Below, one piece after another: positions 4,516 to 51,712 of a stretch of 64,000 nt of DNA; position 1 is the stretch's first letter, and every line of letters begins with the position of its first letter. The DNA is taken from the NCBI GenBank assembly GCA_965199335.1, contig CBDAQZ010000004.1, positions 448,666-512,665 of the forward strand. Direction: 5' to 3'. The notes under the pieces are model-generated. The model was not told where the DNA came from and did no database searches. It saw only the letters and a list, made by a program, of their open reading frames with translations. The stretch is from Alphaproteobacteria bacterium. Its GTDB lineage: Bacteria; Pseudomonadota; Alphaproteobacteria; CALMVH01. Position numbers and translations under genes: made by a program.

Positions 4516-6723
4516 ATGCCCATTGTACCGATGGACACTTCGACACCCACACCGCTTTCGGGACGCGCCGGCATATTGCTGCCGGTCGCGGTCGACCAGG
4601 TTTTCGACTATGCCCTGCCCCAGGGCGTGGAACTGGCATCTGGCACGTTCGTCTCGGTACCGTTCCGCGGCAAGGGCACCGCCGTCGGCGTCGTGTGGGG
4701 CGCGGCGCAGGGCGACGTCGCGCCGGGCAGGCTGAAGACCATCGGCGACGTGCTGGATCTTCCGCCACTGACGCCGGAACTGCTGGAATTCGTCCGCTGG
4801 GTCGCCGCGTACACGATGACGCCGCTGGGCATGGTGCTGCGCATGGTGATGAGCGCCCCCGCCGCCTTCGGCACCATGCCGCAGCGAACGCTGTACCGGG
4901 TGCCTGACACGCTGGACGGCGAGCTGACCCCTAAACGGCAAGCGGTGGTTGCCGTGCTGCGCGACGGCCATGCGATGACGCTGACAGACCTGGCGCGGGA
5001 GGCGGCGGTCGGGCCTTCGGTGATCAAGGCCATGGCAGCGCAGGGCCTGCTGGAACCGGTCACCGCCCGACGGCGCTCCTTGCGCGCCGGGACGCTGGAC
5101 CCCGAATACCGCACGCCGCACTTGACGCTGGATCAGAACGTGGCGGCGTCGAAGCTGCGCGGCGCCGTGGCGCAGGACAGATACAGCGTCACATTGCTGG
5201 ACGGCGTCACCGGCTCGGGTAAGACGGAAGTCTATTTCGAGGCGATCGCGCAGGCGCTTGCCATGGGGAAACAGGCGCTGATCCTGGTGCCGGAGATCGC
5301 ACTGTCGGCGCAGTTCGTCGAGCGCTTCCGCCCGCGCTTCGGCGCCACCCCCGCCTTGTGGCATTCCGACCTGACGCCCGCCCAGCGCCGCGACACCTGG
5401 CGCGGCGTGGCTGAGGGCGGCGTGCGCGTGGTGATCGGCGCGCGTTCCGCCCTGTTCCTGCCCTTCGCCGAGCTGGGCGTGATCGTGGTCGACGAGGAGA
5501 ACGACCCCAGCTTCAAGCAGGAGGAACAGGTCATCTACCAGGCGCGCGACATGGCGGTGGTGCGCGCCAAGCTGGAAGATCTGCCCGCTGTGCTGGTATC
5601 GGCGACGCCCTCGCTGGAGACGCTGGCGAATGTCGACGCGGGGCGCTACGTCCACCTGACCCTGCCCGCGCGCTTCGGCGGCGCGTTGCTGCCCGCGATC
5701 AGGCTGCTGGATTTGCGACAGACGAAGCTGCCGGTGCGGCGCTTCCTGTCGCAGCCGCTGGAAGAGGAGCTGCGCGAGACGCTGGCGGCGGGCGAGCAGA
5801 GCCTGCTGTTCCTCAACCGGCGCGGCTATGCGCCGCTGACCCTGTGCCGCACCTGCGGCCACCGGATGAAATGCCCCAACTGCACCGCCTGGCTGGTGGA
5901 ACACCGGTCGCAGGATCGGCTGATCTGCCATTACTGCGCCCATACCGAGCGCATCCCCGAACGCTGCCCGGAATGCGATTCGGAACATTCGATGGTCCCG
6001 GTCGGCCCGGGGGTCGAGCGCATCGCCGAGGAGGTGCGCGCCCTGTTCCCCGAAGCACGGCTGGCGCTGATGGCCAGCGACCTGATGGAGGGACAGGGCG
6101 TGCTGGCCGACACGTTGCGCCGCATCGGCAGGAACGAGATCGACATCATCGTCGGCACCCAGATCATCGCCAAGGGCCACCATTTTCCCAAGCTGACGCT
6201 GGTCGGTGTCATCGATGCCGATCTGGGCCTGGCCGGCGGGGATTTGCGTGCCGGTGAACGCACCTGGCAATTGATGCAACAGGTCGCCGGCCGCGCCGGC
6301 CGCGCCGAGCACGAGGGCCGCGCCCTGATCCAGACCTACGATCCGCAGCATCCCGTGATGCAGGCGCTGGTATCGGGCGACCGCGAACGCTTCATGCAGG
6401 TGGAGAAATCCGAGCGCCTGTCGGCCTCGATGCCGCCTTATACGCGGCTGGCGGCGCTGATCGTCTCGGGAGAGGACAAGCTGGCTGTCGAGCAAACCGC
6501 GATCACCCTGGGCCGGGTCGCGCCGCATGGGCCGGAGATCCGCGTCCTGGGCCCCGCCCCCGCGCCGATGTTCATGCTGCGCGGCCGCTTCCGCCACCGC
6601 CTGCTGCTGCGGACCGTGCGGACGCTGTCGATCCAGGCGATCGTGCAGGACTGGCTGGACCGCGTCGAAGTCCCGAATGGCGTGCGCGTCCAGGTCGACA
6701 TCGATCCTTACAGCTTCATGTGA
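4516..6723 (+). CDS. priA: Primosomal protein N' (replication restart helicase PriA)
   Basis: A DEAD-like helicase carrying the 4-Cys zinc finger CRTCGHRMKCPNCTAWLVEHRSQDRLICHYCAHTERIPERCPEC. The start was placed at MPIVPMD to avoid overlap with the divergent DUF484 gene. Confidence 0.9.
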   Translation: MPIVPMDTSTPTPLSGRAGILLPVAVDQVFDYALPQGVELASGTFVSVPFRGKGTAVGVVWGAAQGDVAPGRLKTIGDVLDLPPLTPELLEFVRWVAAYTMTPLGMVLRMVMSAPAAFGTMPQRTLYRVPDTLDGELTPKRQAVVAVLRDGHAMTLTDLAREAAVGPSVIKAMAAQGLLEPVTARRRSLRAGTLDPEYRTPHLTLDQNVAASKLRGAVAQDRYSVTLLDGVTGSGKTEVYFEAIAQALAMGKQALILVPEIALSAQFVERFRPRFGATPALWHSDLTPAQRRDTWRGVAEGGVRVVIGARSALFLPFAELGVIVVDEENDPSFKQEEQVIYQARDMAVVRAKLEDLPAVLVSATPSLETLANVDAGRYVHLTLPARFGGALLPAIRLLDLRQTKLPVRRFLSQPLEEELRETLAAGEQSLLFLNRRGYAPLTLCRTCGHRMKCPNCTAWLVEHRSQDRLICHYCAHTERIPERCPECDSEHSMVPVGPGVERIAEEVRALFPEARLALMASDLMEGQGVLADTLRRIGRNEIDIIVGTQIIAKGHHFPKLTLVGVIDADLGLAGGDLRAGERTWQLMQQVAGRAGRAEHEGRALIQTYDPQHPVMQALVSGDRERFMQVEKSERLSASMPPYTRLAALIVSGEDKLAVEQTAITLGRVAPHGPEIRVLGPAPAPMFMLRGRFRHRLLLRTVRTLSIQAIVQDWLDRVEVPNGVRVQVDIDPYSFM

Positions 6724-7878: not shown

Positions 7879-7909
7879 AATTGACGTTTGCATGGACGTT
7901 TCAGTCGGA

Positions 7910-8458
7910 ATGACTGCAGACCGGCCGTTTTATACCATTGGGCATTCGAACCGCACCCTCGTGGATTTCGTCGCCTTGTTGCGCGAAGCCGGAGTCGCCA
8001 TGCTTGTCGATGTCCGCACCGTGCCGCGTTCGCGCTACAATCCGCAGTTCAACACCGACAGCTTGCCCGCGGCCCTTGCCGAGCATAGGATAGGTTATCG
8101 GCACTTGCCTAGTCTTGGGGGTCGTCGCCCCCAGACCCATGCCCCCTCGCCCAACGATTTCTGGGAGGCAGGCGGCTTCCGCAGTTTCGCGGATTACGCG
8201 CATACGGCTGAGTTTCGTACGGGACTGGCCGGGCTGCTATCGCTACAAGAGGCGCATTCCTGCGCGATCATGTGCGCAGAGGCGAAATGGTGGCAATGCC
8301 ATCGCCGCATCATCACCGACTATCTGCTGGCAGCGGGCGGCACCGTTCGGCACATAGTGGGCATGGGCGACATTCAGGACGCCGTAATGACGCCACAGGC
8401 GCGCAACGGGCCGGACGGCACTCTGGTCTATCCCACGCAAGCGCCCCTGCTGCTTTAG
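7910..8458 (+). CDS. DUF488 family protein
   Basis: FYTIGHSNRT...LVDVRTVPRSRYNPQFN...CAEAKWWQCHRR matches the DUF488 signature. The start was taken at the second Met. Confidence 0.6.
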   Translation: MTADRPFYTIGHSNRTLVDFVALLREAGVAMLVDVRTVPRSRYNPQFNTDSLPAALAEHRIGYRHLPSLGGRRPQTHAPSPNDFWEAGGFRSFADYAHTAEFRTGLAGLLSLQEAHSCAIMCAEAKWWQCHRRIITDYLLAAGGTVRHIVGMGDIQDAVMTPQARNGPDGTLVYPTQAPLLL

Positions 8459-10636: not shown

Positions 10637-11185
10637 TTGAGTTCTACCCATACAGCTGTCGCGCGGCGATACGCGGAAGCATTGTTCGAGCTTGCCGAGG
10701 GGCCGGCGCTCGACGGTGTTGCGCGTGACATCGAGGCTTTGCGCGGCATCCTGGCGAAAAGCGCCGACCTGCGCCGCATCGTCGCCAGCCCGCTGGTGTC
10801 GGGCAAGGGTCGTGAAGCCGCGATCAAGGCCATCGCCGAACAGGCGCAGTTCGGCGATATTACCCGCCGTTTCCTGGGCGTGGTCGCACATAACAACCGG
10901 CTGGGCGACATCGGCGACATCGTCGCCGCCTTCCTGAGCGAGGTCGCAGATCGCCGCGGCCTGAAGCAGGTCGAGGTCACTTCCGCCACCCCGCTGGACG
11001 AGGGCCGGCGCGCCGCGATCGAGGCCGGCCTGAACCAGGCGCTGGCGGCGAAGACCGTGCTGACCCTGAAAATAGATCCCGCCATCATCGGCGGCCTTGT
11101 CATCCGCGTCGGCTCACGCCTGATCGACGCATCCGTAAAAACCAAGCTGGACCGTCTGGCACGCGTCCTTAAAACAGCAGCCTAA
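10637..11185 (+). CDS. atpH: F0F1 ATP synthase subunit delta (OSCP)
   Basis: The N-terminus reads ...ARRYAEALFELAEG, and the gene sits directly upstream of atpA. The start is probably non-ATG. Confidence 0.85.
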   Translation: MSSTHTAVARRYAEALFELAEGPALDGVARDIEALRGILAKSADLRRIVASPLVSGKGREAAIKAIAEQAQFGDITRRFLGVVAHNNRLGDIGDIVAAFLSEVADRRGLKQVEVTSATPLDEGRRAAIEAGLNQALAAKTVLTLKIDPAIIGGLVIRVGSRLIDASVKTKLDRLARVLKTAA

Positions 11186-11197
11186 CTGGAAGACTGA

Positions 11198-12733
<1,536 letters not shown>

Positions 12734-12820
12734 TGTCTTTTGTTGACCCGTCATCCTGGACAGGCCCGCAGGGCGGCGCTTCGGGATTTATAGCCCGCTT
12801 TCCGCAAGGGCGGAACGATG

Positions 12821-12849
12821 GACCCCGGATCAAGTCCGGGGTGACGATG
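12821..12849. repeat. Half-copy of the dispersed CCGGGATGAC palindromic element, copy b
   Basis: The sequence is gaccccggatcaagtccggggtgacgATG. It directly abuts the predicted start codon of the inserted ORF at 12847. Confidence 0.45.
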
Positions 12850-13302
12850 TACGCGGCCATATTGGTCGCGACCGCTACACCGCAGGCAGTGCGGGCGGAC
12901 CCCTGCCTTGCCTATGGCGAACAGACGACGCTATCGGGCACGATGGCCATGGTATCGCCATGCCCGTCCGCCGAGGAACCTGGCCTGCATCAGCGCGCCT
13001 GCAAGGATTCGATGCCGGCCCGCCGAGTGCTTGTCCTGCCACAGGCGATCTGCGTCATCCAGGACGGCGGACTCCACCTCGATGCCGCGACCGAGTCCGT
13101 GACGGAAGTCGAACTCGATTATCCTGGCCACAACCCCTTGCCACCGGGCAACTACAATCTTCCGGCGGAGGTTTTTCTTGCACCGGGGAGCAAAGTGACG
13201 GCGGTAGGCAAGCTGGCTCATGGCAAGGACAATTTCTGGGTGACGGATTATGTTTTCAAGGCAATATCGGTAAAGGCGCATAGCGATCATGCCCAGCCTT
13301 AA
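12847..13302 (+). CDS. Hypothetical secreted Cys-containing protein inserted between atpA and atpG
   Basis: Signal peptide MYAAILVATATPQAVRA. The stop lies inside a degenerate duplicate of the atpG 5' end (atgcccagccttaaggac at 13289). The annotated ORF begins at 12733 but that would overlap the atpA stop. Confidence 0.45.
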   Translation: MYAAILVATATPQAVRADPCLAYGEQTTLSGTMAMVSPCPSAEEPGLHQRACKDSMPARRVLVLPQAICVIQDGGLHLDAATESVTEVELDYPGHNPLPPGNYNLPAEVFLAPGSKVTAVGKLAHGKDNFWVTDYVFKAISVKAHSDHAQP

Positions 13303-13398
13303 GGACATTCGCATCGGCTCGGCCAGGTCGCCGCTCGGGATTGCCTCGGCGATAGGGGCAGGCAGAGAAAGCGCGAAAGCAATTCGCGTAACCGTCCT

Positions 13399-14010
13399 AT
13401 GAAAAAGTTCTGGCCATTCGTACTGGGCGTTCTCGCGTTGCCGGTTTTGATCGTAGTCTGGATAATTGTGGGCACACGGCAGTACGATGTTGCCGATGTC
13501 GTATATACGGTGCATTCGGGGGACGATTTGTGCCAGACCTTTGCCTATTCCAGGCGGAACTCCTCTCCCTATGCTGTAATTGCCGGGTTAGGAATATGGC
13601 TTGATGAAACTGGCAATCTGGTTTCCGACATATCCTTTCAAGCAGAAGAACCCGATGCCATCGGGTCCGGCCATGCCGTTGAGTTAACGCCGTTGACGCT
13701 GGTCTTCAACAAAGTCGGCTGGTCGTTTCATAATGCCAAAAAAGTGGTTGATCTGAACGTGCTGAATCTGATGATCGCTGATGAAAAGCTTACCGGGAGC
13801 GTGAAGGATGAATTCCTTTCCGGGCACTTCAACATCAGGTCCGATGTAAGCTTCCTGAAGCCGAGCAAATACCACTTTCATGCGGCTGTACCCTCGGCTG
13901 TCGTGAACTCGTTCGAAAATTGTTTGAATGTCATAAGCGAAGCCAGGAATTTGACGCCTGGCAATGTTGCCGCACGTTATTCGGGAGGTAAGTTCGATGC
14001 CCAGCCTTAA
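13399..14010 (+). CDS. Hypothetical membrane-anchored protein in the lower-GC insert, overlapping the atpG start
   Basis: N-terminal TM helix, and lower GC than the surrounding operon. The gene ends FDAQP* within the genuine atpG start sequence. Confidence 0.5.
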
Positions 14011-14884
14011 AGACCTCCGCACGCGCATCGGTTCGGTCAAGTCGACACGCAAGATCACCTCGGCGATGAAGATGGTCGCGGCCGCGAAACTGCGCCGTGC
14101 GCAGGAGCATGCCGAGGCGGGACAGCCTTACGCCGACCGCATGGCCGGCATGCTGTCGCGCCTGGCCGCCAACATCACGCCGGGACCGACGACATCGAAG
14201 CTGCTGACCGGCACCGGGCGCGACTTGGTGCACCTGGTCGTGGTCATCACGTCGGACCGCGGCCTAGCCGGCGGCTTCAACTTCACCGCCGCGCGCGAGG
14301 CGAGGCGGCTGACGCAGCGCCTGCTGTCGGAAGGCAAGACGGTCAAGCTGATCACGCTGGGCCGCAAGGGACGCGAATCGCTGCGCCGCGACCACGCCGC
14401 GCGCATGCTGGACTACGCCGATACCGGCACGACCAAGGTTTCCTTCGCCGATGCCGAGGCGGTCGCCGAATTCATGCTGGGCATGTTCGAGCGCCACGAG
14501 TTCGACGTCGCCAGCATCGTCTACAACCGCTTCAAGTCGGTGATCGCGCAGATCCCGACCGTGCAGCAGGTGATACCGTTCAAGCTGGAAAAACCTGTCG
14601 CCAACGAAAACGCCACCGTCGGCCCCAAGCCGGTGTACGAGTTCGAGCCCAGCGAGGAGGAAATCCTGGCCGCGCTGCTGCCGCGCAACCTGGCCGTCCA
14701 GATCTACCGCGCCCTGCTGGACAGCGCGGCAGGCGAGCAGGCGGCGCGCATGACCGCGATGGACAACGCCACGCGCAACGCCGGCGACATGATCAACAAG
14801 CTGACGCTGAACTACAACCGCGCCCGCCAGGCGTACATCACCAAGGAGCTGATCGAGATCATCTCCGGCGCAGAGGCAGTATGA
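13997..14884 (+). CDS. atpG: F0F1 ATP synthase subunit gamma
   Basis: [36 protein letters not shown] is the canonical gamma N-terminus. Confidence 0.92.
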
Positions 14885-15126
14885 CCACCAAATTGCTCAA
14901 TGTTACATCGGGCCTTGGCTTTCTGGACGGGCTGTACCCCATTCAGAAAACCCCCGCGCAGGAAACGCCCTTTTCCAGCCTGACCGCGCACCGCACGACC
15001 CACGCCGCGCACCGGGTGATCGGTGTCGACAAGGGCATCGTCAATGGCAGCGTCAACAGCTCGAACCATAACTTACGCCAGATGGCACGTCGCGCAACGA
15101 GCGCGCGCGCGTCTCTGGATTTCTAG
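14881..15126 (+). CDS. Possible small ORF (81 aa) in the unusually long atpG–atpD spacer
   Basis: The ORF overlaps the atpG stop (ATGA). It has no recognisable family and could equally be non-coding leader. Confidence 0.2.
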
Positions 15127-16575
<1,449 letters not shown>

Positions 16576-16579
16576 CCAT

Positions 16580-17011
16580 ATGGGCAAGCCGTTCACCTTC
16601 GAACTCGTCTCTCCGGAAAAGCTGGTCTTCTCCGGCGAGGCCGAGATGGTCGTCATCCCCGCCGAGGAAGGCGATCTGGGCGTCCTGGCAGAGCATGCGC
16701 CATTGATCGCGACCGTGCGCCCGGGAGTCATCCGCGTCTACAACAACGGCGCCGTCAGCAAGCGTGTCTTCGTCGCCGGCGGCTTCGTCGAGGTGACGGC
16801 CGACCGCTGCACCATGCTGGCCGACGCCGCGACGGACGTGACGCAGATCGACCGCGGCCAGGCCGAGCAGGACCTGCTGAAGCTGAACACCGAATCCCCG
16901 ACCGCGACCGACCGCCACGCCGCCGAAGTGCAGAAGCGCAAACTGGCCGTCGCCAAGGCCAAGGTCGCGGCCGCAGGCGGCAACTACGCGCAGCCGGAGC
17001 GGACGCACTAA
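16580..17011 (+). CDS. atpC: F0F1 ATP synthase subunit epsilon
   Basis: A 143-aa protein immediately after atpD with epsilon-like sequence. Confidence 0.9.
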   Translation: MGKPFTFELVSPEKLVFSGEAEMVVIPAEEGDLGVLAEHAPLIATVRPGVIRVYNNGAVSKRVFVAGGFVEVTADRCTMLADAATDVTQIDRGQAEQDLLKLNTESPTATDRHAAEVQKRKLAVAKAKVAAAGGNYAQPERTH

Positions 17012-17015
17012 TTAT

Positions 17016-17113
17016 TGTCATTCCGGATGTGGCAGCAAGCCATGTCCGGAATCCACAGGCTTTCGACGCGGCGACCGCAGCATGGATTCCGGCTCTGAGC
17101 CCGGGAATGACAG
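17016..17113. repeat. Dispersed palindromic element with nested inverted repeats, copy c
   Basis: Ends tgtcattccgga and cccgggaatgacag enclose an inner pair ccggaatcca and tggattccgg. The final bases gacaggag supply the SD for the next gene. Confidence 0.6.
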
Positions 17114-17122
17114 GAGTGTACG

Positions 17123-22233: not shown

Positions 22234-22304
22234 CTGTCATCCCGGCCTGAGCCGGGATCTCTAACCGATCTGCAACAGATCCCGGGTCAGGCCCGGGATG
22301 ACGA
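22234..22304. repeat. Dispersed palindromic element, copy e, same architecture as copy a
   Basis: Reads gtcatcccggcctgagccgggatct...agatcccgggtcaggcccgggatgac. Confidence 0.6.
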
Positions 22305-27318: not shown

Positions 27319-27344
27319 TCGGAACGTCTTCCATCGTCATCCCG

Positions 27345-27373
27345 GGTCGAGCCCGGGATGACGAAGAGGGATT
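27345..27373. repeat. Single-hairpin copy of the dispersed element, copy f
   Basis: The sequence is gtcatcccgggtcgagcccgggatgac. Confidence 0.55.
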
Positions 27374-51683: not shown

Positions 51684-51712
51684 GGGATCCCGGATCAAGT
51701 CCGGGATGACAG
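51684..51712. repeat. Half-copy of the dispersed element, copy g
   Basis: The sequence is gggatcccggatcaagtccgggatgacagc. Confidence 0.5.

Follow-up and report, generated by a model that had tools for sequence, protein, structure and literature searches.

The genes for the F1 sector of the ATP synthase form one of the most conserved and tightly packed operons of bacteria. How do two uncharacterized open reading frames (ORFs) come to stand between atpA and atpG, and how does atpG stay intact behind them? The question is raised by a 64,000-nucleotide (nt) stretch of an alphaproteobacterial contig, CBDAQZ010000004.1 (hereafter, the window), in which the atp genes follow the order atpHAGDC (delta–alpha–gamma–beta–epsilon) with matching Pfam domains, as they do in the 80 + 13 loci compared. 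We find that the start of atpG is duplicated within the insert, and that the first ORF belongs to a family of secreted-type proteins that occupies the same site in three relatives, whereas nine others have an empty site. We think it probable, although well short of certain, that the atpG start is a recombination hotspot at which small genes have entered repeatedly while atpG was kept intact.

The insert and the duplicated atpG start

The atpA–atpG spacer of the window measures 1,263 nt, confirming the approximately 1.26 kb given in an earlier reading of this DNA (the original prediction); the median is 29 nt (interquartile range, 11–45; maximum, 646) in 77 other alphaproteobacterial loci fetched via the gamma subunit. 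The two ORFs reported within the spacer check out in coordinates and composition, including the lower GC content of ORF2: the atp genes have 65–66% GC, ORF1 has 61%, ORF2 has 50%, and ORF2 with its surroundings has 49–52%. The features of the site are:

11204–12733, + strand: atpA (F1 alpha subunit), which borders the variable site upstream (Pfam ATP-synt_ab_N, ATP-synt_ab and ATP-synt_ab_C, E = 1e-81)
12749–12846, no strand assigned: complete palindromic element resembling repetitive extragenic palindromes (REP) and miniature inverted-repeat transposable elements (MITE), with arms CGTCATCCTGGAC and GTCCGGGGTGACG (from fold and arm count)
12847–13302, + strand: ORF1, 151 amino acids, secreted-type with four conserved cysteines (BLASTP, alignments A1 and A2)
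13289–13353, + strand: atpG′, a decayed copy of atpG nt 1–71 (local alignment, repeat families D1 and D2)
13289–13402, + strand: relay mini-ORF of 37 codons that starts at the atpG′ ATG (translation of the sequence)
13399–14010, + strand: ORF2, 203 amino acids, an ORFan with an N-terminal membrane helix and 50% GC (searches, AlphaFold2 (AF2) and composition)
13997–14884, + strand: atpG (F1 gamma subunit), intact (Pfam ATP-synt, E = 4e-99, full length)

Positions 13289–13353 align with 13997–14067 (65 compared with 71 nt) across a single 6-nt gap. The local score of this repeat is 50, compared with 16.1 ± 2.3 (maximum, 26) for 500 shuffles, which speaks against chance similarity; the degenerate copy of the atpG start proposed at 13289, with 6 nt missing, is therefore real and extends further than had been noted. 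The similarity begins exactly at the ATG and stops at ...CCTCGGCGAT, and atpG′ aligns with the atpG start of every member of the clade described below (alignment A4). The same alignment places the true start of atpG at the clade-conserved ATG at 13997 and not at the in-frame upstream ATG at 13964. Both ORFs end inside a copy: the final five codons and the stop of ORF1 fall within atpG′, and the stop of ORF2 lies inside the atpG start. Their shared endings (DHAQP-stop in ORF1 and FDAQP-stop in ORF2) are indeed both produced by the TAA inside ATGCCCAGCCTTAA, as had been pointed out.

Only ORF2 stands between the two copies; ORF1 is located upstream of the left copy, and its end falls inside that copy. 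The duplication thus does not flank both genes, contrary to the first description, and the arrival of two foreign genes as a single insert gives way to a history of at least two separate events. About 20% of positions differ between atpG′ and the live copy, in addition to the indel, compared with differences of 27–34% at four-fold sites between the window and its nearest relatives. These figures suggest that the insertion of ORF2 is not recent but is probably younger than the splits from those relatives, which would fit the restriction of ORF2 to the window lineage.

At the left border, the original prediction had placed half a copy of a dispersed element at the start of ORF1. The element is complete: it spans 98 nt between 13-nt arms (12749–12761 and 12834–12846) and folds at −51 kcal/mol (z = −2.35) with both arms paired. 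Its arm motif occurs 14 times in the window (4.8 expected), and paired copies lie at 2607–2674, 12749–12846, 17017–17117 (directly after atpC), 22236–22302 and 27336–27362. It shares with REP/MITE-like elements its dispersal, inverted termini, long hairpin fold and intergenic position; unlike them, it appears here as a bystander. An orthologous palindrome stands in the empty atpA–atpG site of one relative, L081, and homology between that locus and the window breaks after ...GGTGACGAT, at about position 12848 (alignment A3). We take the element to be native spacer that lies outside the insert, which leaves ~12849–13996 as the inserted block. Across the window, the dispersed elements have GTCATCCCGG-type inverted termini, are 27–100 nt long and intergenic; 51689–51710 is also listed among them.

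ORF2 retrieved only itself from a word-indexed search of 5.8 billion proteins and from an exhaustive HMMER search of 1.84 billion cluster representatives. It had no tblastn match in plasmids or phages and no match in Pfam, NCBIfam, PHROGs or PADLOC. We regard it as a real membrane-anchored ORFan of horizontal origin because of the length of its frame (the chance of 203 open codons in DNA of 50% GC is ~6e-5), the periodicity of its GC content (GC1/2/3 = 0.53/0.38/0.59), the rank of its own frame as the best of six and its hydrophobic N terminus. Helix 5–28 is the sole confident part of its AF2 single-sequence model (predicted local distance difference test (pLDDT), 41), and the product looks like a bitopic membrane or periplasm-facing protein.

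Secreted-type proteins at the same site in relatives

A search with the gamma subunit returned a clade at 74–90% identity, consisting entirely of metagenome contigs. Twelve clade contigs were fetched, which together with the window gives 13 loci (93 loci were fetched in all). They are syntenic with the window, sharing PriA, MASE1–GGDEF, OmpA, atpHAGDC and GlcNAc 2-epimerase. The window atpA is 92–95% identical in amino acids to those of L081 and L083 and is alone in its 90% cluster; the organism appears to represent an isolated lineage without a close relative. Among the matches listed, the best named relatives of the gamma subunit are from Azospirillum and Inquilinus (65–68%), compared with 57% for the sole Sphingomonas-labelled locus among the 80 retained, and there is therefore no support for the assumption that relatives should be sought in the Sphingomonadaceae.

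In nine clade loci, the atpA–atpG site is clean and empty, with a length of 5–148 nt (L081, L082, L086, L088–L091 and L093 are listed). Three relatives have an occupied site:

L083 (atpG 89% identical to that of the window): REP, Shine–Dalgarno sequence (GGGAGG) and ATGCCCAGCCTTAAAGACCTTCGCACGCG fused in frame to a 163-amino-acid ORF of 42% GC that ends in NAQP-stop
L087 (atpG 79%), upstream ORF: two domains, 45% GC, ending in NAQP-stop on a decayed atpG-start copy
L087, proximal ORF: 62% GC, MLSPKSLH..., starting from the decayed copy and abutting atpG
L092 (atpG 78%, different sample), upstream ORF: single domain, 43% GC, ending in NAEP-stop on a decayed atpG-start copy
L092, proximal ORF: 62% GC, MLNPKSVR..., starting from the decayed copy and abutting atpG

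These genes start on the atpG start codon and its first ~10 codons and stop on the next atpG-start copy, and the 5′ sequence of atpG is nearly invariant across the clade (A4). The clearest case is L083, in which the ORF ends on a second, perfect 29-nt copy of ATGCCCAGCCTTAAAGACCTTCGCACGCG that is the real atpG start. The cassette is thus bracketed by a direct repeat of the atpG start that is identical at 29 of 29 positions, which argues that this insertion is recent. As a side observation, the atpG of L083 has a one-base insertion at ~4990–5000 (ATGTGGTCG compared with ATGGTCG in relatives) that cuts the called gene to 271 amino acids; it is most likely a long-read assembly indel, and indel-level details of the ERZ250xxxxx contigs need care.

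The comparison with relatives, proposed to show whether the insert is strain-specific, gives a different answer for each gene: ORF2 is present only in the window, and the family of ORF1 occupies the same site in L083, L087 and L092. BLASTP identified a family for ORF1 (1e-18 to 6e-5), and the database searches no relatives for ORF2. The opposite outcome, in which the same two genes recur across relatives as ancestral genes, is not seen: nine sites are empty and ORF2 occurs nowhere else.

All ORFs at the occupied sites of the relatives are homologous to ORF1, which matches the 163-amino-acid ORF of L083 at 1e-18, the proximal ORF of L087 (L087_148) at 2e-9 and members in L092 at 4e-6 to 6e-5, and a five-domain profile (A2) matches the independent L092 members at 1e-28 and 4e-13 in hmmsearch. 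Similarity spans the whole mature domain, and ORF1 shares with the family four cysteines, an I-E-L motif and a G-x-L-x-H motif (A1 and A2); the I-E-L region reads ELDYPGHNP in both the window and L083. Of its possible frames, frame 0 looks most like coding sequence (GC1/2/3 = 0.66/0.47/0.69), and its N terminus resembles a signal peptide (MYAAILVATATPQAVRA followed by DPC). By eye, every family member has an A-x-A-type site before the first cysteine, with putative cleavage at VRA/DP in the window, TSA/ES in L083, ARA/DD in L092 and TKA/C in L087. Members of the family resemble small, disulfide-bonded proteins of the periplasm on which purifying selection is relaxed, and secretion would be of the Sec type.

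Purifying selection is observed in one orthologous pair, L087_148 and L092_142 (63% amino-acid identity, dN/dS of 0.43 and dS of 0.75), compared with a dS of 0.61 and a dN/dS of 0.11 for atpG in the same pair. This indicates that the gene is real, vertically co-inherited and fast-evolving; its nonsynonymous evolution is ~4 times faster than that of the gamma subunit.

The family was found solely between atpA and atpG, in 4 of the 13 clade loci (the window, L083, L087 and L092); a profile search of the 93 fetched loci and the rest of the window detected no further members. The word-indexed search of 5.8 billion proteins returned only ORF1 itself and missed even the L083 homologue. Profile searches of Pfam, NCBIfam, PHROG, PADLOC and PDB gave no match for ORF1, nor did PADLOC, Pfam and NCBIfam for the cassette proteins, and tblastn of plasmids and phages gave nothing for either ORF. 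Two candidates from a metagenome scan with an ORF1–L083 alignment, L084 and L085, were false positives that lie antisense to an integrase gene. We also rejected membership of DUF4431: one domain of L087_301 scored 12.8 bits (E = 0.08–0.11) against a gathering threshold of 24 bits, a hit that did not recur and that none of the other members shared.

The 5′ end of ORF1 is less regular than those of its homologues. ORF1 stops on atpG′ (HAQP-stop), but the atpG-derived leader that is present in L083, L087_148 and L092_142 is not recognizable at its start. Alternative starts are a GTG at 12841 and an ATG at 12733; an SD-like GGGGTGA (SD, Shine–Dalgarno) lies inside the REP arm ahead of 12847, and the annotated start at 12733 overlaps the atpA stop (TGATG) and reads through the REP. 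Positions 12863–12893 resemble 14073–14101 (atpG nt +77–105) in frame with a score of 26, a marginal likeness that is reached by 0.4% of shuffles and 1.5% of random window pieces. This may be chance, or a third, very decayed atpG remnant that marks the junction at which the ORF1 cassette begins. Separately, the frame of the first cassette is open back through the whole REP in the window (12733–12846), L087 (2681–2806) and L092 (1336–1450), as far as an ATG located at the atpA stop or close to it (TGATG in the window and in L092). The chance of this is ~0.3 per locus; translation could enter the first cassette by coupling from atpA, through the REP, or the open frame could be fortuitous.

Possible routes of insertion at the atpG start

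If small genes recombined repeatedly into the atpG start, atpG would remain intact because each insertion left or brought a copy of its 5′ end. An atpG-start copy closes every cassette, and in the relatives one also opens every cassette after the first. This suggests a repeating unit of atpG(1–n) plus gene body, stacked ahead of intact atpG. The value of n differs: 29 nt in L083, ~30 nt in the decayed copies of L087 and L092, and 65–71 nt in the ORF2 cassette of the window. The window would then be a two-cassette array that arose in at least two separate events. The older cassette would be that of ORF1, with 61% GC. The younger, carrying the low-GC ORF2, would have entered after nt ~71 of the then atpG, left atpG′ at 13289–13353 and supplied or regenerated a fresh Shine–Dalgarno sequence and atpG start. 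The empty sites of relatives and the 29-nt repeat of L083 bear out the original proposal of an insertion or recombination scar at the atpG start.

Within this history, close relatives carry at the same site family members that differ sharply in composition (42–45% compared with 61–62% GC, gaps of 20 points) and are 25–34% identical, compared with 78–90% for atpG. These differences argue for turnover from a diverse pool of cassettes rather than simple vertical descent, and the proximal genes of L087 and L092 show that a cassette can be retained after its arrival.

We consider homologous recombination the likeliest mechanism, with the conserved atpG 5′ sequence as its anchor; the near invariance of this sequence across the clade would suit it to that role. 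Donor DNA could enter by homology-facilitated illegitimate recombination. Alternatively, a circle excised between direct repeats could reintegrate at the atpG start in the manner of Campbell, a route in which a single crossover by itself restores the repeats on both sides. Crossovers between the repeats would also remove cassettes precisely and may in this way account for the scar-free empty sites.

Expression of the cassettes would depend on their neighbours. We found no convincing + strand terminator within the insert and no recognizable promoter of the cassettes' own, and we propose that they ride on read-through transcription of the atp operon. The frames form a chain of overlaps: ORF1 stops in the ATGCCCAGCCTTAA of atpG′, the TGA of the relay mini-ORF that begins there overlaps the ORF2 ATG (ATGA), and ORF2 stops in the atpG start, its 3′ end carrying the atpG Shine–Dalgarno sequence (GGGAGG, 13983–13988) eight nt before the atpG ATG. 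Co-expression with the F1 genes is plausible in view of the missing terminator and this chain, the layout of which is as would be expected for termination–reinitiation coupling. The 37-codon relay mini-ORF would then be translated and ribosomes passed along to atpG. In L083, the cassette has taken over the atpG Shine–Dalgarno sequence and the real atpG start is preceded by CCTCC, so such coupling would be needed. In the relatives, the atpG ribosome-binding site, start codon and first ~10 codons would also provide the charged N-region of a signal peptide, an apparent exaptation of the atpG leader.

Several points weigh against this picture. The sequence alone does not tell which of the two recombination routes was taken, and no source pool for the low-GC cassettes was found. 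ORF1 of the window has no atpG-derived leader and an ambiguous start (12733, 12841 or 12847), and its signal peptide would have no positive N-region if the start is 12847. The relatives are metagenome contigs, some of which have indel errors (such as the atpG frameshift of L083), and the range of the ORF1 family is that seen among the fetched loci and the window. The AF2 single-sequence models are uninformative (pLDDT of 34 for ORF1 and 41 for ORF2), and our account of cassette transcription and translation is read from the DNA only.

A serious but unlikely alternative is that these are ancestral accessory genes, inherited vertically and made patchy by repeated loss, with the atpG-start copies as relics of one old event. 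The proximal gene of L087 and L092 has clearly descended vertically (63% identity, with a dS of 0.75 compared with 0.61 for atpG), direct repeats would ease precise deletion, and the ~20% divergence of atpG′ speaks against a recent event in the window. Yet the upstream cassettes of the same two relatives are non-orthologous (~30% identity, two domains compared with one), same-site members are far more divergent in GC content and identity than atpG, the perfect repeat of L083 records a recent event, and ORF2 occurs in no other sequence searched. Vertical inheritance would in addition need at least five independent losses among the 13 loci.

We give very little credence to a remnant of a site-specific integrative element, in which an integrase targeted the atpG 5′ end and brought a replacement. 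As in dusA islands, the 5′ end of the target is duplicated and the gene is intact (PMC4482086). Against this, no integrase, excisionase or transposase is present in the insert or the syntenic neighbourhood (the wider surroundings of the operon encode PriA, DUF488, GGDEF, OmpA, an epimerase and a desaturase-like protein), the cassettes are only 0.45–0.7 kb, and the repeat varies from 29 nt in L083 to 65–71 nt in the window, whereas an att core would be of fixed length. The missing enzymes and the variable repeats together make dusA-type site-specific integration unlikely.

It is hard to credit, too, that a local tandem duplication of an ORF with the atpG 5′ end was followed by divergence. The layout of ORF, atpG′, ORF and atpG is the expected product of unequal crossing-over, and two or three related domains stand in tandem in L087 and L092, but ORF1 and ORF2 are not similar in sequence (BLASTP E = 6, and no match of the family profile to ORF2) and we reject their paralogy. 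They also differ in GC content and in architecture, with a cleavable signal and four cysteines in ORF1 compared with a transmembrane anchor and two cysteines in ORF2.

Spurious frames in decayed intergenic DNA, or an assembly artefact, would explain why both ORFs are ORFans in large searches, why their AF2 models are poor and why their host-codon log-odds are only weakly positive (0.15 and 0.08), but we hold this to be extremely improbable given homologues of ORF1 with conserved cysteines and motifs in three independent assemblies, a dN/dS of 0.43 in one pair, the improbable length and textbook MKK plus hydrophobic N terminus of ORF2, and the same architecture in contigs from different samples.

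Repeated recombination at the atpG start has a bolder form, which we consider rather improbable: the first ~30–70 nt of atpG could serve as an integrase-free attachment site for mini-cassettes that move by homologous recombination. Each cassette would be an atpG-leader-fused gene for a secreted protein, possibly moving through circles excised between direct repeats. If so, mini-cassettes would parasitize an essential, highly expressed operon for transcription and translation initiation. In a stronger version, the secreted family would act from the periplasmic side on the ATP synthase or the respiratory membrane, and its linkage to atpG would be functional rather than accidental. The locus would gain importance if the cassettes proved to be mobile or linked to the ATP synthase.

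Known systems and the rest of the operon

The closest parallels are orphan arrays of type VI secretion system (T6SS) effector–immunity genes, Rhs genes and contact-dependent inhibition (CDI) genes, in which recombination is anchored on a conserved gene segment and successive arrivals leave anchor fragments between them through homology-facilitated illegitimate recombination (PMC5361080). As in those arrays, a conserved anchor stands beside a variable slot, older cassettes are pushed along, the cassette proteins are small, fast-evolving and often secreted, and no integrase is involved. Anchor fragments are also found here, as atpG-start copies that separate the cassettes of the window, L087 and L092 and surround that of L083. 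The present anchor, by contrast, belongs to an essential housekeeping gene (the 5′ end of atpG) rather than to a toxin gene, and the cassette genes are fused to its start and first codons. Moreover, the surroundings contain no T6SS, Rhs or CDI genes, and nothing points to a toxin or immunity function. The operon and its flanks have no effector-like gene, and searches with PADLOC, Pfam and NCBIfam gave nothing for any cassette protein.

Islands with dusA-specific integrases likewise enter the 5′ end of a coding gene and restore it (PMC4482086). The insert resembles them in its position within the first codons of a conserved gene, in the duplicated 5′ end and in the functional gene left behind. 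It differs in consisting of single genes of ~0.5–0.7 kb, with no adjacent tyrosine integrase and no att core of fixed length (29 compared with 65/71 nt). We rejected integron cassettes because the repeat is atpG coding sequence, not a palindromic attC, and no integrase is nearby.

Anchor-based cassette arrays are thus a known process, and it is their location at atpG that is unexpected: in one clade, the atpA–atpG junction behaves as a variable locus. The locus may offer a case for new genes gaining expression by hitchhiking on essential operons, for short conserved coding sequences acting as recombination anchors without an integrase and for signal peptides arising by exaptation. In the reading that we propose, translation of atpG itself would depend on a relay of overlapping stops and starts. 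The analysis also defines a new, uncharacterized family of small secreted-type proteins with four cysteines, and one true ORFan.

The remaining atp genes of the window were placed from the ORF map and from Pfam matches that extend over the full length:

10637–11185: atpH
15148–16575: atpD
16580–17011: atpC

Searches of this region with Rfam returned only chance-level matches, no atpA 3′ remnant was detected in the 3′ end of ORF2, and no duplicated atpD or atpC start rose above chance in the other spacers of the window and relatives.

Extra frames among alphaproteobacterial F1 genes have a precedent. In 1984, Tybulewicz, Falk and Walker reportedly described one in Rhodopseudomonas blastica, an unidentified reading frame that separates the genes for gamma and beta. 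Like the cassettes, it is an ORF unrelated to the ATP synthase that stands among F1 genes and is presumably co-transcribed; unlike them, it lies between atpG and atpD, and we know of no duplicated start of a flanking gene and no cassette variability there.

In the window, the atpG–atpD spacer (14885–15147) is also large (263 nt compared with a median of 29 nt). An 81-codon ORF (14881–15126), the ATG of which overlaps the atpG stop (ATGA), begins with MTTK, as does atpD. It had no family match and no homologue among the spacer ORFs of relatives, and could be a further hitchhiker or spurious. The atpG–atpD spacers of relatives hold a 110-amino-acid tRNA_bind protein in L083 (6053–6385) and L086 (4081–4413), 85% identical between the two, a YCII gene in L089 (5133–5483), a 94-amino-acid GIY-YIG protein in L090 (5025–5309), an OsmC gene in L093 (3575–3979) and a DUF2167 membrane protein of 39% GC in L092 (3201–4211). 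Between atpD and atpC, L090 carries a CopG-antitoxin-like gene (7881–8075). The whole F1 operon seems to be permissive to insertions in this clade.

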